From positions 22,266 through 86,265 of the forward strand of contig JAQBPN010000074.1 of assembly GCA_028287505.1 (NCBI GenBank): a DNA stretch of 64,000 nt, read 5' to 3'. The notes under the pieces were generated by a model. It saw only the letters and a list, made by a program, of their open reading frames with translations. It did not search any database and had not been told where the DNA came from. This document shows positions 47,214-58,887 of this stretch, in pieces. Position 1 is the first letter of the stretch; each line of letters begins with the position of its first letter. Position numbers and translations under genes: made by a program. This DNA comes from Fibrobacterota bacterium. Its GTDB lineage: Bacteria > Fibrobacterota > Fibrobacteria > UBA11236.

Positions 47214-48095
47214 TCAGATTTCCTGTTTTTCCCGCAACTTCAAGCGGAACCGGGCGAAGCCGGACTTGGGGAGCGGCCGCAACGAGGCGGCTTCGCGGGC
47301 AAATCTGTCTTTGATGGACCCGGATTGGGAATCCCCTTCCCTGCCCAACAGCCACCCAAGCAAAGCGGTGTTGGCGCCTTCCACCGATCGCAAGGGGTAG
47401 CCTTTCAGGAAAAGGGTTTCAATCATCCTTAGAGGCCTCTTCAGGCGCCCTGCCGACCAAGGGGCGAACGGTTCGGCCGTCACTGCCGAAAAACCGTGGT
47501 GCGCGGCGAATTGGGACATGGGAAGATTGAGTCCGGTTCCGCCCAGGAAAGCTTTGATCAAACGGTTGCGGGATTTTTCGTATTCGATTTCCGCGGGAAC
47601 GCCCTGGAAATAACGGAAAGCCCTCGCATGCCATTCGAGAAAGGCGTCCAGATCGGCGTGCTCGCACAGCTCGGCGTAAATCCGTCCCGAATATTCCAGG
47701 GTCAAAGTGAACAGGTGGATCTGGCCGCCTCCCGCTTCCACCTTGCCCAGATCCGCCCGGGCCCGCATTCCCGGCCCGCTTTCCGGCTTGCCGGCAAGGC
47801 TATCCTGCCTCAAGGCCCGGACCTTCCGCTTTACCAAATCGTAGCTTCCGGAATACCCGGCGGCCTGCAGGCGCCGGAAAACCTCAACAGCCCTGGTGGC
47901 GGGCCGCTCCCCGAGCATTCCGGACAAGGTATCGAGGTAACCTGCAAGTTTCCCAGGCTGATTCTGCGGAAAATGAGAGCCGAAGCCGGCGGTCAGGTAT
48001 TTTTTGAGGGTATTTCTGCTTACGCCCAACATCCGGGCGATTTTACGTCGGGAATAGCCCTCCCCGGCCAGAGCCAGGGCAGTCGCCATGTCCAT
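47214..48095 (-). pseudogene. IS21-family transposase (IstA-like) remnant, C-terminally truncated
   Basis: N-terminal HTH (GYSRRKIARMLGVSRNTLKKYL) and part of the DDE core (GYSGSYDLVKRKV, FTLTLEYSGRIYAEL, FRYFQGVPAEIEYEKSRN). Only 293 aa remain, there is no istB and no visible inverted repeats. Confidence 0.5.
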
Positions 48096-49138: not shown

Positions 49139-50086
49139 TTGAAAACCATGCCCCTTCACGACCCCCATGGACGCCATATCCGGAAACTCAGGGTACAACT
49201 GACGGATGCGTGCAATTTCCGCTGCTTCTACTGCATGCCTGAAGGCACCCGGTTCCAACCCTCCAACCGTCTGCTCTCCCCGGAGGAAATCGGGGATATT
49301 TGCGCGGCTCTGGAAACCATGGGGGTGGAAGAGATCCGCGTTACCGGCGGGGAACCCACGGTGAGGCCGGAATTCGACGCCATCATGGAAAAATTGGCCC
49401 GGATTCCCTGGAAAAAATTCGGTCTCACCACCAATGGTTTTCTCTTGTCCGACAAGTTGCCCCTTTTGCGCGACCTGGGATGCGGCCATATCAACGTCAG
49501 CCTCGACAGCCTTGTGGAGGGGAAGTTCCGGACCATTACGGGAAGCGCCCACTTCCAAAAGGTGCACGCCGCCATTTTGCGCGCCAAGGCGATGGGGTTC
49601 CAGGTCAAGGTCAACGCCATCGTATTCCGCGGGATCAACGATGACGAACTCCCCGCGTTCCTGGATTTTTCCGCCGAGCATGGGGTGGAAGTGCGCTTCC
49701 TGGAATTGATGCGGGTTGGTCCCGCCATCGGGGAGCATGACGAACGTTTCGTGGCCGCGCGGGAAATGATGGATCGCCTGGGCGCGACCGATGCATTGAT
49801 TCCGGTGGAATCCCCCAACGACTCGACCTCCTTCGGCTTCCGGACCGCGCGCGGGGCGCGCATCGGATTCATCGCGTCGGAATCGAAACCGTTTTGCGGC
49901 GCCTGTTCGCGGCTGCGCCTGTCCGCCACGGGAAAACTGCGCTCCTGCCTGTTCTCGGATACCGGCGTGGAATTGCGGGGACGGGATCGGCTGGACTATC
50001 CGGAAATCCTGCAAGAGGTGATGGCGCTCAAGCCTACGGGGCGTCTGCCGCGCATCCACCAGCCGATGAATCAAATCGGCGGATGA
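49139..50086 (+). CDS. moaA: GTP 3',8-cyclase (molybdenum cofactor biosynthesis)
   Basis: Radical-SAM CNFRCFYC, GGEPTVRP and the C-terminal second Fe-S cysteines (CGACSRLRLSATGKLRSC). Confidence 0.9.
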   Translation: MKTMPLHDPHGRHIRKLRVQLTDACNFRCFYCMPEGTRFQPSNRLLSPEEIGDICAALETMGVEEIRVTGGEPTVRPEFDAIMEKLARIPWKKFGLTTNGFLLSDKLPLLRDLGCGHINVSLDSLVEGKFRTITGSAHFQKVHAAILRAKAMGFQVKVNAIVFRGINDDELPAFLDFSAEHGVEVRFLELMRVGPAIGEHDERFVAAREMMDRLGATDALIPVESPNDSTSFGFRTARGARIGFIASESKPFCGACSRLRLSATGKLRSCLFSDTGVELRGRDRLDYPEILQEVMALKPTGRLPRIHQPMNQIGG

Positions 50087-50090
50087 GGAA

Positions 50091-52625
50091 TCACTCGGCC
50101 TTGTCGAAGCCGAGCTCGAATCCCGAACCCAGCCTCAGGAAATAGATGGGCGCGTCGTCTTCGACGCTCCCCAAGCCTGCGCGCAGGGTTCCCAGGGGCG
50201 TAACATACCCCGCCTGGACCTCCCAATGGAACCGGAACGGGATTTCCTGACCGCCGAAGCTTCCGAGTTCCGCTTGCTCGGGGAAGAAGGTGCCGCCGTA
50301 ATTCCGATAGGCGCCCGCAATCAGCCTCAGGCCCGCCTTTCCGAAAGTAGGCCCGTACTCGAGCTTGACGTCCCGGAAGCTCCGGGAACGCAAAAAGGTG
50401 AAGAAGTACTCGTCCTGGAAGGTAAAGGCGTCGATGCGCCCGGCTTCTATCATGTCATAGAGACCGAAATCCCTGGTTTCCTGATCCGACCAGAAATATT
50501 GGTCGGAAAGCCGGAAATCCCCCAATGTGAAACGCAGGCGGGATTCCAGGCTTGAAAAAGGGTATTTGACCTGGCCGACGGTATTCACGCGATTGTAGTT
50601 CCGAAAACGCAAACGCAATGCGTGCGGATAGAATCCTCCCGGATCCCGCTTTCCAAGGCCCAGGAATGCCGTCTCCTGGAAATCCGTGGACAGGAAGGAA
50701 GGTTCCCCTTCATCGGGGACGGACATCTCGTGTTTCTGGACGGCGGTGCGGAGATAGGCCGATGGGAAGGGGAAAATGGTGAGGAACAACTCCGACAGCG
50801 TCCGGTCCAAGCGAAAGGCCCAAGGGCCCTGGTACCGGGCCCCCTTGGGCGGGACGAAATTGGGATAGAGTTCATTCCAGTTGGTCCGCGTCAGGCCGAT
50901 TTCCAGGTGCAAAGGGAAGACCGGAGCGATCATGAAGCGACCTTGGTACCCCGGACGATGCCCGCCCAACAGCAGACCCGCTTCCGCCTCGAAAGGAATG
51001 TAAAAAGGTTCGCTCCAGGCCACGCCGCCATACACTTCCGGCGGGCGATCGGGGAGTTCCTCTCCCGTGAAGGTGAAGTTGTATCCCGCGCGGAAATCGA
51101 TCTTGGATTTTTCCTTGGCGTCGAAAATAAGCGACGCCTTCTCCTCCGGGCCTCCCCGGGACCATTCCAGATCGAGATCCGTGTAGAAACCGGACTCCAC
51201 CAGGGCGGCGATTGCCCCTTCCCCGCTGCTGTCTTCCGGATTCCTATCCGAAGTGCGGACGATATCGAGCAACAGCTCCCTGCCGCCGGAAGCCAGCGGA
51301 TTGACCGATAGCCGGTTGAGCCCCAGGCGTTCCTCACCGCCGGGCTTGGGGCCGGACGGCGGCGTATCCTTTTTGTGGGTCAGCACGGATTGCAGGATGT
51401 CCATGGACCGTAACGCGGAGGTATACCCCAGGTTCATCCAACGGATGGGATCCGTTTCTTCCGGATCGAATTCACCTTCCGGCTCCAGTTCGATGACCAT
51501 CCTTTCCCGCGCCTGTCCCGCGGAAGCCTCGCCTCCGACCCCGGGGGCCGGAATGCGGCGTTTGGTGCGGAGGTTCAGGGAATCGGTCCAGGAAACGGAA
51601 CCGCCCTCCAGGGACGAGGGCCTCAACCGGTGTCCGGGCTGGATCAAAATGATCCGGTCGCAGGAGAAAGGCAACTTGTCGGACATCACGGCGTTGCCGG
51701 ACAGCAGGGAGCCCGAAGCGAAGGGCCACAGGCGCTGCCGCTGGCGGACAACGCCGGCGGGCAGGAGGGAAGCTTTGACGATATTCTGGAGGTTCCCATC
51801 GGTCAGGACCGCCTCCTTGTCGGAAGTCAGGTCCGAAACCTGCACGGCCAGGCGCCGCGGCGTTTCCGCCAGGTCCTCCACCGGCCCTCCCGGGGCGTCG
51901 TGGGTCAGTTGCGCCACCATCCAGGAAAGGTGCAGGTATTCTCCCGTCTCCCCCATGGTCACATCGCTCCACCGCGATCCGGGAGTCTGCAGGCTTTGCA
52001 GTCCCAGGGGAACCTCCCATTGCATGGGATCCGGTCCGGGCGGGTAAAAGGTCCTCTCCGCGCCCCGGTCCCGGGTAGGAAAGGGACGCAGATATCCTTC
52101 CAACGGCCGGCGCATCAATTCCTTTTCGGTTGCGGCGGAGGAATAGCCCAAGGCCCAAGCCGCGCCGACCACCACCGCTTTCGATTCCGCCAGCACGGCG
52201 TCGGGTTCCAAACCGAATTCTTCCAATGCCTTCAAGACGCCCAGGTAGGCATAGACCAGCTTGCTGTCCGCGCTCAGGAACAGAACGTTGCCGTAGTGGT
52301 CGGGCGTGCGCGCGGTCCTGTTCGCGGGTGCCGCTTGCGGCAAGGCGCTCAAGGAATCCCGCCCGGCTTCCGGGGATTCCGGTTTCCCTCCGACGGCGGG
52401 AACAGGGGGCGTGGACCCGGGAGAAGCCGTGGCCGGAGGAAGGGCCTCGGGCGGCTTCGGGGATTCCTGACGGGAAGCGGAATCCCCTTTGGATGCCTTG
52501 TGCGGTCCGGAAGTATCCAGAAATACAAAAGCGAAGGCGGGGCTCAGGAGTCCGAGCGTCAGGGCCGCGAAAATGAAGCCGCAAAGGGCGTTACGGGCAG
52601 GTTGCCGTCCAGGCGAAATCAGCAT
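50091..52625 (-). CDS. PlpD-like two-domain protein: divergent patatin-like domain plus C-terminal Omp85-type beta-barrel (type Vd-like)
   Basis: Signal peptide. The patatin-like block is LFLSADSKLVYAYLGVLKALEEFG...AESKAVVVGAAWALGYS with a DGN Asp motif. A Pro-rich linker and a long C-terminal amphipathic beta-barrel region follow. Confidence 0.55.
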   Translation of the reverse strand: MLISPGRQPARNALCGFIFAALTLGLLSPAFAFVFLDTSGPHKASKGDSASRQESPKPPEALPPATASPGSTPPVPAVGGKPESPEAGRDSLSALPQAAPANRTARTPDHYGNVLFLSADSKLVYAYLGVLKALEEFGLEPDAVLAESKAVVVGAAWALGYSSAATEKELMRRPLEGYLRPFPTRDRGAERTFYPPGPDPMQWEVPLGLQSLQTPGSRWSDVTMGETGEYLHLSWMVAQLTHDAPGGPVEDLAETPRRLAVQVSDLTSDKEAVLTDGNLQNIVKASLLPAGVVRQRQRLWPFASGSLLSGNAVMSDKLPFSCDRIILIQPGHRLRPSSLEGGSVSWTDSLNLRTKRRIPAPGVGGEASAGQARERMVIELEPEGEFDPEETDPIRWMNLGYTSALRSMDILQSVLTHKKDTPPSGPKPGGEERLGLNRLSVNPLASGGRELLLDIVRTSDRNPEDSSGEGAIAALVESGFYTDLDLEWSRGGPEEKASLIFDAKEKSKIDFRAGYNFTFTGEELPDRPPEVYGGVAWSEPFYIPFEAEAGLLLGGHRPGYQGRFMIAPVFPLHLEIGLTRTNWNELYPNFVPPKGARYQGPWAFRLDRTLSELFLTIFPFPSAYLRTAVQKHEMSVPDEGEPSFLSTDFQETAFLGLGKRDPGGFYPHALRLRFRNYNRVNTVGQVKYPFSSLESRLRFTLGDFRLSDQYFWSDQETRDFGLYDMIEAGRIDAFTFQDEYFFTFLRSRSFRDVKLEYGPTFGKAGLRLIAGAYRNYGGTFFPEQAELGSFGGQEIPFRFHWEVQAGYVTPLGTLRAGLGSVEDDAPIYFLRLGSGFELGFDKAE

Positions 52626-53645: not shown

Positions 53646-54449
53646 TCAGATGAAATCGCGCTTATTGAACCACAGGCCCGCGATCAACAGATAAATACCG
53701 ATGAACATCAGGCCGTATAGGCTGCTGTACAGCACGTAGTGATGGCCGATGGGCAGATCATAAACCACCCGCCCGCGGATATTGAAGTTTTCCATGTTCG
53801 GGATGATGTAATACACCCCTTTGATGACTTTTTCCGTAAAGGGATTGATCACCGGGGTCCCGGGCAACCGTTTTCCGAATTTATGGATGAAGGCCAGATG
53901 GTTTACGATGTCCCCGGAGAGGTGGCCGGCCACGTAGACGCCCAAGGTAAAGAGCGCGCTCATGGTGGGCGTTGAAAAGGCGGAGAAGAGCAGCGCGGCG
54001 GCGGTAATGACGGCCATTTCCACGAAAATGAGATAGATGGCCCAGAGCAGATTCGCCTGCGGCCGCGTGCCGATAAGAATCAGGATGAGGAAGAAGACCA
54101 GCGTCATGAAAGCCAGGTTGAGGGCCAGCACCATCAACAGGCCCAGGTATTTGCCCACGATGAAATGCCACCGCGGCAAAGGCTTGGCCAAAAGGGTCAG
54201 AATCGTCTTGCGCTGGATTTCCTTCTGGACCAGGCCTATCCCCACGAAGATGGACATCAGCAGCCCGACCAGGGACATGACGGCCAGGGAAAAGTCGGAA
54301 ATGACGGTCTGCCTCGCGAACACGGACCATTCCCCGAGCATGAGGGAGAAAATGATGAGACCGATGGCGAAGAGCACCAGGTTGTAGAGGATTTTATCGC
54401 GAACGGTTTCCCGGAAAGCGTTCACGGCGATTATCAACATCGGTTTCAT
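53646..54449 (-). CDS. ABC-2 family transporter permease
   Basis: Six-TM ABC-2 profile. Start at the internal Met MKPMLIIAVN; ATGA-coupled to the ATPase. The 190 aa upstream in the track ORF are rejected. Confidence 0.7.
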   Translation of the reverse strand: MKPMLIIAVNAFRETVRDKILYNLVLFAIGLIIFSLMLGEWSVFARQTVISDFSLAVMSLVGLLMSIFVGIGLVQKEIQRKTILTLLAKPLPRWHFIVGKYLGLLMVLALNLAFMTLVFFLILILIGTRPQANLLWAIYLIFVEMAVITAAALLFSAFSTPTMSALFTLGVYVAGHLSGDIVNHLAFIHKFGKRLPGTPVINPFTEKVIKGVYYIIPNMENFNIRGRVVYDLPIGHHYVLYSSLYGLMFIGIYLLIAGLWFNKRDFI

Positions 54450-55354
54450 ACGTTTTTCGCAACCTCTTCGGCGAGCACGTCTTCCAGGGAGTGACGATTG
54501 CGGCTGATGGATTCGATGCCTATTCCCTGGGCCAAGGCCCATTGCAAAAAGGAACGCTGGGACTGCAGGTCCGGACAGGAGACTGCGCGCGCGCCAAGAG
54601 AAGTCCCTACGCCTTTGGGAAGGTCCTCGGGTTTGACTTCCGCCGTGAGCACGATTTGGTAATGTTCGGCCTCGCCTTCCAGAACCTGGGCGACGGTACC
54701 CTGACGGCGGATTTGCCCGTCGACCACCATGGCCAAGCGCGTGCAAATCGCTTCCACGTCGCTCAGGACGTGGCTGGAATAGAAAACGGTGATTCCCTGG
54801 GAATGCAGGTTCTGCAAAAGGGCGCGCACATCGCGGCGGCCCAGGGGGTCCAGTCCGGACATGGGCTCGTCCAGGATGACCAGCCGCGGCCGGGACAGAA
54901 GCGCCTGGGCCAGACCGATGCGTTGCAACATGCCTTTGCTGTATGTCCGCAGCTTGCGGTCCATGGCCTCCGGGCGGAGGCTGACGAGCTCGGTCACCTC
55001 GGCCACGCGCTTCTTCAGATCCTTCCATGCAAGGCCGGAAAGCTGGCCGTAGAACCAGAGGAATTCCCTGCCGCTGAGGTAATCGTAAAAGTAGGGTTGT
55101 TCCGGAAGGAACCCGACGTTCTGGCGGCTCCGGGGCGAACCCGCCGGCAGACCCATCAGGGTGGCCTTGCCGGAACCGACCTTGAGCAGCCCCAACAGGA
55201 TTTTGATGGTGGTGGATTTGCCCGCGCCGTTGGGCCCGATGAAGCCGTACAGGTCGCCCTCATTGACCTCGAAGCTGACGCCGCGCAACGCTTCCACGGA
55301 TTTGCGCCAGAAGCCGATCCGGTAGGTCTTGCGGAGATCCTCGACCTTGATCAT
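54446..55354 (-). CDS. ABC transporter ATP-binding protein
   Basis: Walker A GPNGAGKST, Q-loop, signature motif LSGGQ-like (YSKGMLQRIGLA), Walker B LVILDEP and H-loop. Confidence 0.85.
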   Translation of the reverse strand: MIKVEDLRKTYRIGFWRKSVEALRGVSFEVNEGDLYGFIGPNGAGKSTTIKILLGLLKVGSGKATLMGLPAGSPRSRQNVGFLPEQPYFYDYLSGREFLWFYGQLSGLAWKDLKKRVAEVTELVSLRPEAMDRKLRTYSKGMLQRIGLAQALLSRPRLVILDEPMSGLDPLGRRDVRALLQNLHSQGITVFYSSHVLSDVEAICTRLAMVVDGQIRRQGTVAQVLEGEAEHYQIVLTAEVKPEDLPKGVGTSLGARAVSCPDLQSQRSFLQWALAQGIGIESISRNRHSLEDVLAEEVAKNV

Positions 55355-55361
55355 GGCCGTG

Positions 55362-55673
55362 TCAGCCCTGTTGGCGCTTGCGGAACCTGCGATAGTAAGT
55401 GATGGCCCTGCCGCCCGCGTAGGATACGAAACCTGCCAGCAGCAGGTAGCGCCCCAGGACGTTGGGATTGAGGGAGAAGTCCTTGTGCTTGAAAAACTCC
55501 CTGGACCCGGTCCGATCCAGATAGAGACAGAGGGCCGCCAGCACCAGGAGACCGATGCCTATCGCCACCAGGTACCAGCTGACTGTCGCCAAGCCGTCCT
55601 CCTTCCCGAAGGAGTCGTAGGCTGAGGGATCGAATTTTCCGTTTTCGGTCGGCTGCTGATCTTGTTCCGGCAT
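55362..55673 (-). CDS. hypothetical small two-TM membrane protein
   Basis: Start at the internal Met MPEQDQ; two hydrophobic helices; stop adjacent to the ABC ATPase start. Confidence 0.35.
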   Translation of the reverse strand: MPEQDQQPTENGKFDPSAYDSFGKEDGLATVSWYLVAIGIGLLVLAALCLYLDRTGSREFFKHKDFSLNPNVLGRYLLLAGFVSYAGGRAITYYRRFRKRQQG

Positions 55674-55844
55674 GGGGGAAAATATAAACGTTCCGGGAGT
55701 CCTTGACCACGATCTGAGCCACCGCCCCCGCGAATGGCCCGTGAATGTTGACTGGCTTCGGCATATAACGGTCCTAGTATAAGCCTTGCGACGGGCGGGA
55801 TGCAACCCCTCCCCGTTCCCTGGGCGCCATGGACCGGGGGTGTT

Positions 55845-56483
55845 TCAGCGTTTCAGATCTTCCGCCAGTACCGTGCGCCCGCCGAACTGTTCCAAAATGA
55901 AAATCGCCTGCTCCAGATGGGTCGGCTTGCGCTGGCGGGCCAGCGACTCCGCCCCCTGGAGGATGAGCGGCAGGGATTTGACGAGATGGAATTTCCAGGC
56001 CCCGCCTTCCCGGATGAATTGGAACACGGGCACGTTAGGCGCTTCCCGCAGGCCGATTTCCCCCACCTCGCCGCGCACCTTCGCCTCGCCGATTTCGGAC
56101 TTGAGGAGGCTTTTCTTCACCGGCCAGCTCTGGATGACAAGCTTGTCCAGGATGGCTACGGGGCGATCGTCGAAGCCGGGGTTCAGGCGCCGCTCCACTC
56201 GCAAGGCAAGGATGCTGAGGATCTCATAAAAGGGACGCTCCGCCAGATAAGCGGGGGCCTCCGTGCGCGAGGCGCGGCGCATGTCGTCTATCCAATCCAG
56301 GGATTCCCGGGACAGATAGGCGGGAAGGGAGTCCGCCTTCCCTTCCTGGACCCGTTGGCGGAAGCGCAGGAAAAAGGCGTCCAGATCCTTGCCCGCCGCC
56401 GGGTCTTCCGGAAGCGGCGGCCCGGAACCGCCGCATGCGGCGAGCAGCAGGAAACCGCAAAAAAGGGCGGGATGGATTCTCAT
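55845..56483 (-). CDS. hypothetical lipoprotein
   Basis: Signal peptide plus lipobox LLLAACGG. Confidence 0.45.
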   Translation of the reverse strand: MRIHPALFCGFLLLAACGGSGPPLPEDPAAGKDLDAFFLRFRQRVQEGKADSLPAYLSRESLDWIDDMRRASRTEAPAYLAERPFYEILSILALRVERRLNPGFDDRPVAILDKLVIQSWPVKKSLLKSEIGEAKVRGEVGEIGLREAPNVPVFQFIREGGAWKFHLVKSLPLILQGAESLARQRKPTHLEQAIFILEQFGGRTVLAEDLKR

Positions 56484-56526
56484 CCGGAAAATATACCAAG
56501 CCGGCGGCGCGGTTTCCGGCCGGTAT

Positions 56527-58887
56527 TCACACGCCGGACTCGAGGCGGTTCCGGTAGATGCGGATCTTCTTCTCCCAGTTGCGCTGGTTGAATTCGTCGT
56601 CGGCCCGGAACTTCTTGAGTTTGTAGGCTTCCAGCAGTTCGGCGATGGCCTGGCGATCGTACGGATTCCATTTCACCAGATACCCCTCGATGATCGTAAG
56701 GGCCTCGTCGATATTGCGGAAATCCACGGTGGTATGCTTGCGCCAGGTCCAGAAGGCCAGGTCCGCCGCTGATCCCGGGATCTTGTCTTCCGACTCCAGC
56801 AGCTTCAGGGCGATGCGGCGTGCGGTCTCGGGATCGTCCTGCACGTAGCTCTGGCCCAGGAGAAACTCCAAGGTTACCGACTCCTGCTCGTCCAGGTCGA
56901 TGTACCCCAAAAGCACCTCGCCCGCCTTGGCATCGTCCCCCATCTGGTAGTAGCAACCCGCCAACAGGGTGGCCATCGCGCTGGACAGCCGGTTTTCCTT
57001 GCGATACCGTTCGATGAAGCCTATGGCGCGCGCATAGTCCCCGCGCTGATACAGGCTTTGCAGGTATTCCAGGATCTGGCTTTCATAAACATCATGGCCG
57101 ATCAGGAAACCCGAAATCACGGAGTCCTTGACCGCGGGCAAGGGGCGTTTGCCGATCAGGCTTTCATATTCCCAGTCCGCGAAGAAGAAACCGTGCCCGG
57201 CGGAACGGCCCAGGTGCGAGGCCTGCCGATCGACATCGTCCTCGTTCATGTGGGCGATCAGGAATTGCAGGTAGGCTTCGTTCTGGACATCGATATCCTG
57301 GCCCAGGATGGCCTTCAACTCCGGAATCTTGGCCTTGGGAACCACGATGCCCATGGTGTTGTACATGTGGCTCCAGTCCTGGCTGAACTCACTCCAGCGC
57401 TGATCGTCCCAGATGTCGTAAGTGTTGACATCATAGGTGACCAAGGTCTGCAACACCTGATCGTAGCCGAACACGGCGATCACATGGCCGGGAATGAACG
57501 CCAGCACCGGAATCCCGTGATCGATGAGCTTGAAGATGTCGTTCAGGGATCTCAAGGGAAGCACCATGTTGGCGAAGCCGCGGGATTCGCTGAAGAAGGC
57601 TTCGTCCGTGATCAGGCTGCCGCGATCCAGTTGGGTGATTTCCGCTCCGATCCGTTTGGCGCCGCTGCGGTCGCCCCAATAGTTGAGGACCAGGCCCAGG
57701 GAATTGGGAACGCAATAGGCGCTTTTGTATTCGGTGCGCGCTTCTATTCCGGGTATGACCACGCGCTTGAGGGTGCTGTCCCTATCCTTTTCCAGCTTGT
57801 CCCGGAAATCGTGGGCTTCCAGAAGCAGGCGGGAATCGTGATAGTACTTCACCAGCACCCGGATGAAGGCTTCCTTGGATTCCTCCAGGTTCCCGCTCTT
57901 GCGGTGCAACAGAGCCACGCGGAATTGCAGGTAGGATTTCAGATTGTCGGAACGGCTCCAGGTCAGGGCCCGGGAATACCAGGGAATGGCCTTTTGGGGC
58001 GTGCCGGATTTTTCATAATGCTGGCCCATGAGCAGAGCGTAATTGATGGGCAATCCGGTGACCACCGCCAGTCCGATCATGGCCAGCCCCACCGAGACCA
58101 GGCCCATGGCGTACGCGCCCAGGAAGCCTTTGCCGGATCGCCAGAGCCGCATGCAATGGTGCACCAGGATGGGGATGCTGGAAAACCACAGGACGAAGAA
58201 GAGGATCTGCCGCGTCCTGTCCAACCAGGCGGGAAAGATGGTCAATTCTTCCACCTGCCAGAGCGGAATGGTGACCAAGAGCAGATGGAGCTGGTTCACG
58301 AAAACATGCGCGCCGGTAACCAGCAGGATGAGGCCCACCAGGCCCGAGAGGGACCAGCCCTCCCCCTCCTTGGAGGTCTGCATGGCCGAGAAGAACAGCA
58401 GCAGGCCGAAGTTCAGCCAGACCACGCCCAGTTCCGAGGAGATGGAATCCACGGATGCATTGATGGGGTAGTAGCTGCTCCAAAGCAGATCGGACAACCA
58501 CTGTTCCATGCTGGCCAGGAATACGGCCATGGGCAACGCCGCCGCCGCCAGGGCCAGGGACGTGCGCAAGCGCCGATATGCGGGAACCGGGGAAGGCGTT
58601 CCCCTCTCGATGGGCATGATGACCATTGCCGCGAAGCCCCAAGCCAGGTTCCAGCCCGCGAGCAGTATGGAAATGAACAACCAATTGAAGGGCAGCCATG
58701 CGACCGCGGGAAGCGGAGCGAGCGAAGCCAGAATCATCAAGGCGCGGAAAAAGCGGGACCGGGCGCGCCCCACATAGGGCATGAAAGGCCACGGTCCGGC
58801 CAGCACCATCAGGAAATACACGAAGCCGGGCAGGTGCGCCAGGACCGGGCGGTGGGAAACGGCGGATTGCGGACCGGGTTTGATCAT
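56527..58887 (-). CDS. polytopic membrane protein with a C39-like (Peptidase_C39_2, papain-fold) domain and C-terminal TPR repeats
   Basis: About 9 N-terminal TM helices, then EYKSAYCVPNSLGLVLNYWG (the C39_2 Cys motif) and GHVIAVFGYD (His motif), then TPR-like repeats (LYQRGDYARAIGFIERY...). Confidence 0.5.
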   Translation of the reverse strand: MIKPGPQSAVSHRPVLAHLPGFVYFLMVLAGPWPFMPYVGRARSRFFRALMILASLAPLPAVAWLPFNWLFISILLAGWNLAWGFAAMVIMPIERGTPSPVPAYRRLRTSLALAAAALPMAVFLASMEQWLSDLLWSSYYPINASVDSISSELGVVWLNFGLLLFFSAMQTSKEGEGWSLSGLVGLILLVTGAHVFVNQLHLLLVTIPLWQVEELTIFPAWLDRTRQILFFVLWFSSIPILVHHCMRLWRSGKGFLGAYAMGLVSVGLAMIGLAVVTGLPINYALLMGQHYEKSGTPQKAIPWYSRALTWSRSDNLKSYLQFRVALLHRKSGNLEESKEAFIRVLVKYYHDSRLLLEAHDFRDKLEKDRDSTLKRVVIPGIEARTEYKSAYCVPNSLGLVLNYWGDRSGAKRIGAEITQLDRGSLITDEAFFSESRGFANMVLPLRSLNDIFKLIDHGIPVLAFIPGHVIAVFGYDQVLQTLVTYDVNTYDIWDDQRWSEFSQDWSHMYNTMGIVVPKAKIPELKAILGQDIDVQNEAYLQFLIAHMNEDDVDRQASHLGRSAGHGFFFADWEYESLIGKRPLPAVKDSVISGFLIGHDVYESQILEYLQSLYQRGDYARAIGFIERYRKENRLSSAMATLLAGCYYQMGDDAKAGEVLLGYIDLDEQESVTLEFLLGQSYVQDDPETARRIALKLLESEDKIPGSAADLAFWTWRKHTTVDFRNIDEALTIIEGYLVKWNPYDRQAIAELLEAYKLKKFRADDEFNQRNWEKKIRIYRNRLESGV

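Follow-up and report, generated by a model that had tools for sequence, protein, structure and literature searches.

A lineage-specific patatin-like Omp85 protein of uncultured Fibrobacterota with a degenerate patatin site

PL-Omp85 proteins have been viewed either as secreted lipases or as periplasmic lipid-homeostasis factors. Their physiological role is still called a mystery, and the literature on their location is divided, with the newest work favouring the periplasm (PMC11116518). The gene described here lies in a window (the whole stretch of DNA analyzed) of 64,000 nucleotides and raises the question of what such a protein does when the catalytic motifs of its patatin domain have diverged. 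The initial annotation described it as a PlpD-like type Vd protein, with a patatin passenger that may be a pseudo-lipase or have altered activity.

Family assignment and domain architecture

An NCBI MAG protein with the name 'patatin-like phospholipase family protein [Fibrobacteres bacterium]' matched the encoded protein at 100% identity, and about 50 orthologs of the 844-aa protein were found. The core family comprised 41 aligned orthologs and a deeper set comprised six syntenic orthologs. A tblastn search of the window with 26 canonical PL-Omp85 proteins matched this gene alone and revealed no paralog.

The profiles PF01734, PF01103 and PF07244 had been proposed in the initial annotation as a check of the architecture, but none of these HMMs gave a sequence-level match to the query. 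The gathering threshold of Patatin (PF01734) was not reached, the query having no match even at E<=10, and weak matches to this profile were obtained with just six of the 41 orthologs (best E 1.2e-5). Among the Pfam and NCBIfam profiles, just RssA matched the query, and below threshold; Patatin, Omp85 and POTRA were not detected. The family assignment therefore rests on profile-profile and fold comparison. The phmmer and profile matches of the query were to PlpD only (phmmer, PlpD 5fqu). When the query family was compared by hhalign with the 26 canonical PL-Omp85 proteins (Patatin matched by all 26, Omp85 by 13 and Omp85_2 by 13), the two aligned over 448 collinear columns with a probability of 99.85% and an E value of 1e-30. 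The AF2 model of the query (pLDDT 74) contained 16 strands and a beta-alpha-alpha-beta-beta unit, and the same fold was confidently predicted for an ortholog of 24% identity.

The patatin plus Omp85 architecture thus holds at the fold level, and the PlpD-like combination of a patatin domain and a 16-strand barrel given in the initial annotation was borne out by hhalign, AF2 and fold search, with one POTRA in addition. From the N-terminus, a Sec signal peptide is followed by a patatin-fold domain, one POTRA and a 16-strand Omp85 barrel (Table 1). The gene is a lineage-specific ortholog, from uncultured Fibrobacterota, of the patatin-like Omp85 family (PlpD/FplA). The protein is a variant of the already known PL-Omp85 type.

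Table 1. Features of the gene and its protein, with positions in the window
Feature	Residues	Position	Strand	Basis or remark
Whole gene, degenerate PL-Omp85 protein	844 aa	50091..52625	(-)	single ORF spanning exactly these coordinates
Predicted Sec signal peptide	1-32	52530..52625	(-)	basic n-region, hydrophobic core, A-F-A cleavage site; read from sequence and alignment
Mature N-terminal motif FVFLDTS	33-39	52509..52529	(-)	clade consensus [FYI]V[FTA]L[DN]TS
Disordered Pro/Ser/Ala-rich tether	40-108	52302..52508	(-)	pLDDT <50, low conservation
Patatin-like alpha/beta domain	109-414	51384..52301	(-)	
Block I, FLSADSKLV, in place of Gly-rich oxyanion loop SGGGA[KR]G	116-124	52254..52280	(-)	phmmer, cross-family alignment, hhalign
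Block II, AESKA, in place of nucleophile elbow GTSMG; S148 at nucleophile position	146-150	52176..52190	(-)	phmmer, cross-family alignment, hhalign
Probable lid with conserved PDPxQWxIPLxLQSLQ	177-230	51936..52097	(-)	inferred by position relative to PlpD lid
DGN, non-catalytic xGxL turn	276-278	51792..51800	(-)	matches the canonical 'G.L' that precedes block III
Block III, KASLLP, equivalent of canonical RASMxxP	284-289	51759..51776	(-)	cross-family alignment, hhalign
Block IV, ASGS; Ser304 at catalytic Asp position of [VF]DGG	303-306	51708..51719	(-)	cross-family alignment, hhalign
Patatin-POTRA linker	415-438	51312..51383	(-)	low pLDDT; 4 Pro in 24 residues
Single POTRA-like domain, beta-alpha-alpha-beta-beta	439-503	51117..51311	(-)	fold/profile level only; PF07244 match absent
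16-strand Omp85-type beta-barrel	504-836	50118..51116	(-)	
Clade hallmark WSEPFYIP, turn joining barrel strands 2 and 3	537-544	50994..51017	(-)	
Long insertion between strands 11 and 12, Omp85 loop L6 position	714-748	50382..50486	(-)	without (V/I)RG(Y/F); family reads AF[TS]FQDEYF

The predicted structure displayed the arrangement that characterizes the Omp85 superfamily, a 16-strand barrel after at least one POTRA. The POTRA elements assigned by DSSP in the AF2 model were E439-441, H448-459, H469-478, E484-489 and E498-503, and the same beta-alpha-alpha-beta-beta unit was present in the AF2 model of ortholog P0060, which is encoded on the 3.75-Mb contig ERZ25039538 contig_2699. This segment was collinear with the POTRA region of canonical PL-Omp85 proteins in hhalign, and the best Foldseek match was BamA with one POTRA (4c4v). 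Within the hallmark turn of the barrel, E539, P540 and P544 did not vary among the 11 sequences aligned across the clade, the WSEPFYIP motif being itself among the patterns used to retrieve genome loci. The protein ended in ...LGFDKAE, with an aromatic residue five positions from the end.

The final 260 residues of the query, and of most core-family sequences inspected, contained no (V/I)RG(Y/F) motif of L6; two core-family sequences displayed an isolated pattern match off the L6 position (MGGF at 804 and LGGY at 763). At least one match to [LIVMF]xG[YFWH] was found in the same protein part in 17 of the 26 canonical PL-Omp85 proteins. Since the barrel and POTRA are invisible to Pfam and the L6 RGY/F motif is absent, the barrel may work differently from known Omp85 proteins.

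A small-x-small site directly preceded the conserved N-terminal motif in all of the 41 aligned orthologs. A lipoprotein reading based on Cys15 was ruled out, as NALC is no lipobox and the Cys is not conserved. V34, T38 and S39 of the motif were invariant in the 41 core sequences and in the deep orthologs. The motif was undocked in both AF2 models (the query and an ortholog with a shorter tether), with pLDDT <50 and no secondary structure. It was also considered as a general sorting tag, but when the window and 22 loci, a small sample, were searched in six frames, it occurred solely in this gene family. The tether that follows is the least conserved part of the protein (dN/dS 0.3-0.6). Pro accounted for 20% of residues 33-108, the segment that separates the patatin domain from the signal peptide. 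The Pro-rich tract, which had been placed between the domains, thus mainly precedes the patatin domain, and the true interdomain linker is short.

Motif blocks of the patatin domain

The initial annotation had read the oxyanion loop as SADSKL and the elbow as AESKA, and the alignments confirmed both. SADSKL (118-123) occupies the SGGGA[KR] position of canonical relatives according to phmmer to PlpD 5fqu, the cross-family alignment and hhalign. The Gly-rich oxyanion hole GGGxR/KG is absent, and a Gly-free variant of the SADSKL type was kept in all 41 orthologs, S118 and D120 being present in every one of them. The elbow variant was conserved as well, with E147 in 41/41 sequences, S148 in 39 (Gly in P0037 and P0043) and position 149 occupied by Lys in 38 and Arg in three. 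The strand 143-148, the turn and the helix 151-158 around S148 were predicted at a pLDDT of ~94 (AF2). Block III retained K284, L288 and P289.

Both the Ser and the Asp of a downstream DG(N) had been considered present. The Ser was found (S148), but the DGN at 276-278 is a turn that mostly begins with Glu in the core family (E 32, D 5, Q 2, N 1, S 1; n=41). The true position of the catalytic Asp is Ser304, and the degeneration therefore goes further than had been stated: a Ser-Asp dyad is not found in the query, and the elbow is AESKA rather than GxSxG. Position 304 was Ser in 36 of the 41 sequences, Pro in two, and Thr, Ala and Asp in one each; Asp was retained here in the divergent orthologs P0052 and P0063. 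The claim that all glycines are replaced was correct for blocks I and II but not for block IV, where G305 was invariant (41/41). Position 311 was His in 37/41 sequences and Asn in the query itself. The lid region had low pLDDT and a short predicted strand (203-208), with P200, Q202, P206 and Q213 conserved. The lid of PlpD covers residues 89-126 and begins about 29 residues past the Ser (PMC11116518).

Taken together, the sequence predicts loss of the canonical phospholipase A1 mechanism, comparable to the inactive FplA D243A. The expectation of a pseudo-lipase or of altered activity pointed in the right direction.

The patatin domain might still be a hydrolase with a rebuilt site, in which S148 is the nucleophile on an AxSxA elbow, and D120, E147, K149 or H311 replaces the lost Asp as base, with altered activity or substrate. 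Because S148, E147 and K149 are conserved and S118 and D120 are invariant, a remodelled catalytic site is possible for the core family. The prevalence of His311, the well-predicted strand-turn-helix around S148 and the strong purifying selection on the domain are in line with this reading. Ala at the first elbow position is also tolerated in some lipases, for example in the AHSMG motif of Bacillus lipases. However, the nucleophile position was Gly not only in two core members but also in five of the six deeper syntenic orthologs (P0055, P0060, P0062, P0063 and P0064), and the deeper set also varied at positions 120 and 149. With the nucleophile Ser replaced by Gly in relatives, the feature conserved across the whole clade is not catalysis. 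Moreover, the query carries Asn rather than His at 311 and has no Pfam Patatin match. In FplA, S98A or D243A singly abolished activity, so that loss of the Asp alone was sufficient, and Gly-to-Ala replacements in the oxyanion loop resulted in insoluble protein (PMC5724010). A rebuilt hydrolase is hence rather unlikely, although it deserves consideration for the core family.

Selection, gene neighbourhood and function

The gene is inherited vertically and in synteny as part of the core set, amid housekeeping neighbours, and is not a virulence or accessory locus. Its synteny was maintained down to orthologs of 24% identity. An ABC-2 exporter, an ABC_tran/ABC2_membrane_2 pair, is encoded immediately upstream throughout the clade; attempts to annotate it gave only generic DrrA/GldA-like matches below cut-offs, and neither its permease nor the small proteins matched anything. 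Purifying selection constrains the patatin domain as strongly as the barrel (dN/dS 0.14-0.22 and 0.15-0.21, respectively), and the patatin core was the best-conserved part of the protein, with a column identity of 0.77-0.81. The canonical active site has been lost and yet purifying selection persists; therefore, the scaffold probably has a non-enzymatic job.

On balance, we favour a lineage-specific PL-Omp85 pseudo-phospholipase that probably faces the periplasm and serves the outer membrane by binding lipids or as a structural component. The patatin domain would have lost canonical Ser-Asp hydrolysis and kept fold, pocket and lid. By analogy with PlpD, it may be placed on the periplasmic side under the barrel, where it could, for example, bind or present inner-leaflet phospholipids without catalysis. 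Alternatively, its contribution to outer-membrane lipid or envelope homeostasis might be that of a structural or regulatory partner to the Omp85 barrel. The FVxLDTS peptide on its flexible tether of ~70 residues is probably an intra- or intermolecular ligand of the barrel or POTRA, which is speculative.

A bolder proposal would extend this to the whole Fibrobacterota PL-Omp85 clade as a non-enzymatic Omp85 machine. The dead patatin domain would bind lipids or another substrate, or pass them on, under the barrel, and the invariant FVxLDTS would gate or plug the barrel or POTRA, similar to the H1 helix and linker of FhaC or the lid of PlpD. It may cooperate with the upstream ABC-2 exporter as a trans-envelope lipid or export pathway. 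In this full form the proposal is conjectural and has a low probability.

The domain order equals that of PlpD and FplA, both first assigned to the type Vd secretion systems, and the barrel is of the Omp85 type as in TpsB transporters. A type Vd autotransporter, the barrel of which exports the patatin passenger to the surface or medium to act, possibly weakly, on external lipids, would agree with both. However, this framing, also adopted in the initial annotation, is disputed: PlpD is homodimeric and its patatin domain remains in the periplasm, export of a folded 31-kDa domain having been argued to be implausible (Hanson et al. 2024, PMC11116518), and FplA was not detected in the culture medium (PMC5724010). 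A patatin domain without catalytic apparatus makes a secreted-lipase role doubly unlikely, and the position of the gene among housekeeping neighbours also speaks against export, which we consider very improbable. Decay of the patatin region into a functionless relic, with the barrel alone mattering, would fit the loss of canonical catalytic residues in different ways in different sub-lineages, but it was rejected on dN/dS and is hardly credible given the high conservation of the patatin core, the invariant S118, D120 and E147 and a fold confidently predicted at only 24% identity.

The favoured pseudo-phospholipase reading bears on the PL-Omp85 debate, since the clade represents a natural experiment. 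The full patatin-POTRA-barrel scaffold has long been kept under purifying selection, while the oxyanion loop and the catalytic Asp were lost, as was the nucleophile Ser in several branches. This argues for a scaffold function independent of hydrolysis. Literature searches on Omp85, patatin and Fibrobacter, and on outer-membrane patatin pseudoenzymes, returned nothing relevant. The label 'patatin-like phospholipase family protein' claims more than can be inferred for these genes. For mutagenesis, concrete handles exist in the conserved N-terminal peptide on its tether and in the WxEPFYxP turn of the barrel.

Comparison with known patatin and Omp85 proteins

Patatins of the RssA, CapV/CapE and ExoU/VipD types have no barrel; they are soluble enzymes or effectors in which GxSxG and DGA/G are intact, while the query lacks both motifs and is fused to an Omp85 barrel. 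Compared with BamA/TamA and the TpsB proteins (FhaC, CdiB), the query has a single POTRA and an N-terminal patatin-fold domain. It further differs from them in the absence of L6 (V/I)RG(Y/F) and of any Pfam match, in the clade-specific WxEPFYxP turn and in the ...LGFDKAE end.

FplA, the PL-Omp85 phospholipase A1 of Fusobacterium nucleatum, has the same architecture as the query. It displays an intact Ser98/Asp243 dyad, a Gly69-71 oxyanion hole and measurable PLA1 activity (PMC5724010), whereas the query is without the catalytic Asp and all of the oxyanion-hole Gly. Both carry an N-terminal extension before the patatin domain, a likeness of position. That of FplA (residues 20-59) is reported to influence catalytic efficiency (PMC5724010).

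PlpD of Pseudomonas aeruginosa (PDB 5FQU/5FYA), the prototype of PL-Omp85 or 'type Vd' proteins, shares its domain order with the query: signal peptide, patatin domain, short linker, one POTRA and 16-strand Omp85 barrel. The likely topology, dimer state and lipid binding of the query are drawn by analogy from PlpD alone. The query also possesses a lid-like, low-confidence segment at the equivalent position after the elbow. However, the patatin domains are just ~17-19% identical, and GG(A/G)xRG of PlpD corresponds to SADSKL, GTSMG to AESKA and the Asp of DGG to Ser304. The L6 region of the query is without an RGY/F-like motif, no Pfam domain is detectable, and the protein carries an extra N-terminal extension of ~75 residues, consisting of the FVxLDTS motif and its Pro-rich tether.

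Profile and fold-level identity of the protein

The gene encodes 844 amino acids in a single ORF, and the product shared 100% identity with a MAG protein at NCBI annotated as 'patatin-like phospholipase family protein [Fibrobacteres bacterium]'. Direct family scans were nearly blind to it: at E<=10 Pfam returned no Patatin, Omp85 or POTRA match, and the sole NCBIfam match was a sub-threshold RssA. Among 26 canonical PL-Omp85 proteins scanned with Pfam, Patatin was detected in all 26, Omp85 in 13, Omp85_2 in 13 and POTRA in six. About 50 full-length homologs shared 45-67% identity with the query and one shared 32%. When 1.8 billion representatives were searched exhaustively with the profile, just 23 proteins fell below 1e-30; these were followed, after a gap, by canonical proteins of ~750 aa, among them the 26 scanned with Pfam.

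The only PDB sequence match was the patatin domain of PlpD (E 8e-5 with the query, 8e-7 with the profile of 41 orthologs). This alignment paired FLSADSKL with VLSGGAARG and LAESKA with AGTSMG, reproducing the initial annotation, in which SADSKL was the oxyanion block and AESKA the nucleophile elbow. Comparison of the query family with the 26 canonical proteins by hhalign (probability 99.85%, E 1e-30) gave a collinear match of 448 columns that starts in the patatin domain, crosses the linker and POTRA and reaches into the first barrel strands. In Foldseek searches against the PDB, BamA and TamA (with POTRA) ranked first (E ~2e-9, TMt 0.65 to the TamA barrel), followed by PlpD (TMt 0.69). The AlphaFold2 model built on the 41-sequence alignment (pLDDT 74, pTM 0.65) predicted the domains listed in the table, and that of P0060, a deep ortholog 24% identical to the query (pLDDT 78, pTM 0.74), reproduced this layout of patatin domain, POTRA and 16 strands. 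Together, the hhalign, Foldseek and AlphaFold2 results confirm, at the level of profile and predicted fold, the PL-Omp85 architecture proposed initially. The insert at the L6 position of the query lacked an RGY/F-type motif.

Features of the PL-Omp85 gene, its product and its surroundings
Feature	Window position (strand)	Residues	Description
HTH_7 ORF	47214-48095 (-)		293 aa
moaA ORF	49139-50086 (+)		convergent
PL-Omp85 gene	50091-52625 (-)		spanned exactly by the ORF; stop codon 50091-50093
Conserved cluster	53646-58887 (-)		786-aa TPR/Peptidase_C39_2-like; 212-aa hypothetical, possible lipobox (LLAAC); 103-aa membrane protein; ABC ATPase; ABC-2 permease
FVFLDTS	52509-52529 (-)	33-39	clade [FYI]V[FTA]L[DN]TS; mature N-terminus, just after signal peptide
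Pro-rich tether	52302-52508 (-)	to 108	disordered, ~70 residues, 20% Pro
Patatin domain		110-415	alpha/beta (model)
Block I		118-124	canonical SGGGA[KR]G; query SADSKLV
Block II		146-150	canonical GTS[MI]G; query AESKA
Block III		284-289	canonical RASMxxP; query KASL-LP
Block IV		303-306	canonical [VF]DGG; query ASGS
POTRA		439-503	beta-alpha-alpha-beta-beta topology (model)
Barrel		508-833	sixteen long strands (model)
L6-position insert		within 508-833	long, strands 11/12 (model)
WSEPFYIP	50994-51017 (-)	537-544	clade WxEPFYxP; turn, barrel strands 2/3

Loss of oxyanion glycines and catalytic Asp

The cross-family alignment and hhalign agreed on the block equivalences. Both placed the position of the catalytic Asp at Ser304 and not in the 'DGN' (276-278) first taken for it; DGN pairs with an xGxL turn that precedes block III and is non-catalytic, and 32 of the 41 orthologs carry Glu in place of its Asp. 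Column 304 contained S in 36 orthologs, P in two, and T, A and D in one each. The divergent homologs P0052 and P0063 retain D here (SDGA and LDGS), which confirms the block IV register. Neither the oxyanion glycines nor the catalytic Asp is retained in the query. The nucleophile Ser is dispensable across the clade: position 148 was Ser in 39 of 41 core sequences and Gly in the other two, and among deeper orthologs it was Ser in P0056 and Gly in P0055, P0060, P0062, P0063 and P0064 (AEG, VEG or ADG). In FplA, either S98A or D243A is enough to eliminate activity, and the protein becomes insoluble when oxyanion-loop Gly residues are changed to Ala (PMC5724010). Given these losses and the FplA mutants, a canonical Ser-Asp mechanism is very unlikely to operate in the query.

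The best-supported reading is that of a pseudo-phospholipase PL-Omp85. Its main rival, which we consider improbable, is a rebuilt active site in which S148 would act with D120, E147 or K149; S118, D120, E147 and G305 were invariant in the core family (41/41), and position 149 was always K or R. Of 75 other long matches, 52 contained all three canonical motifs in a simple pattern test. Degeneration was also seen in six further relatives, whose elbows read A[ST]SWG or GSGWS and some of which have an RVFLNTS-like N-terminus.

Purifying selection, vertical inheritance and neighbourhood

The patatin core was the best-conserved part of the protein (column identity 0.77-0.81). Nei-Gojobori dN/dS ratios, which are rough because dS was near saturation, were 0.14-0.22 in the patatin domain and 0.15-0.21 in the barrel, and reached 0.3-0.6 in the N-terminal tether. 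The gene is under purifying selection and vertically inherited, and is maintained, not decaying. All 15 species-representative genomes matched were uncultured Fibrobacteria/Fibrobacterota MAGs, one with a doubtful 'Bifidobacteriales' label. A contig labelled 'uncultured Bifidobacteriales bacterium' (CAYNXV010000099.1) holds a 31%-identical ortholog, and its closest equivalent is a Fibrobacteria MAG (locus L019). It is probably mis-binned or mislabelled; an outer-membrane barrel protein is implausible in Bifidobacteriales. Large GH9 cellulase and Fn3_assoc/CHB_HEX_C_1 proteins were located near orthologs of distant lineages (loci L020, 1926-6860; L024, 1-1282; L021, 14264-18301), consistent with a Fibrobacterota (cellulolytic) origin of the whole clade.

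The conserved gene order was ABC ATPase, ABC-2 permease, LigT and CutA (opposite strand), the PL-Omp85 gene and convergent moaA. Orthologs at just 24-28% identity still adjoin LigT or LigT-CutA. The same-strand cluster was also conserved beside the gene at loci L002, L003, L020, L023 and L024, and in the lineage of the window the opposite-strand CutA-LigT pair is inserted between the ABC pair and the PL-Omp85 gene. At L023 and L024, two loci of very distant relatives from the degenerate set, the gene lies directly downstream of ABC_tran, ABC2_membrane_2 and T2SSE-family ATPases on the same strand; the ABC-2 exporter linkage therefore spans the whole clade. The linked ATPase is only generically DrrA/GldA-like, and a functional link with the ABC-2 cluster is possible. 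The gap between moaA and the PL-Omp85 stop codon is only 4 nt, so any terminators must lie within neighbouring coding sequence. The HTH_7 ORF, situated between a conserved 247-aa hypothetical gene and a LysR gene, was absent at the syntenic loci L002 and L003 and may represent the insertion of a mobile element, transposase-related or other.

Clade-specific motifs and possible function

The signal peptide is predicted to be cleaved after A-x-A at residue 32. The N-terminal motif that follows is kept clade-wide, even at 21-31% overall identity; V34, T38 and S39 were invariant in the core family and deep orthologs (FVTLDTS, FVTLNTS, IVFLNTS), so that conservation is higher at this motif than at the former catalytic residues. 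The motif was undocked in both AlphaFold2 models (query and P0060). The Pro-rich linker placed between the domains by the initial annotation corresponds mainly to the N-terminal tether. Between patatin and POTRA, the linker contains just four Pro in 24 residues. WxEPFYxP is the clade's most conserved barrel motif (E539, P540 and P544 invariant), and we know of no counterpart in BamA, TamA or PlpD.

By analogy with PlpD (PMC11116518), the patatin domain would be periplasmic. As a pseudo-phospholipase, the protein may have a non-catalytic role such as lipid binding or envelope homeostasis, with the tethered N-terminal peptide as a putative ligand or gate. A secreted (type Vd) passenger, as first suggested, is unlikely, since recent PlpD topology data count against it and the domain does not appear to be a competent lipase. 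In the searchable literature we came across neither an account of PL-Omp85 proteins with a degenerate catalytic site nor one of members from Fibrobacterota. The clade would be valuable as evidence from nature for the capacity of the PL-Omp85 scaffold to serve a hydrolysis-independent function. In canonical PL-Omp85 proteins the patatin domain begins at about residue 30, without the N-terminal motif and Pro-rich tether of the query.
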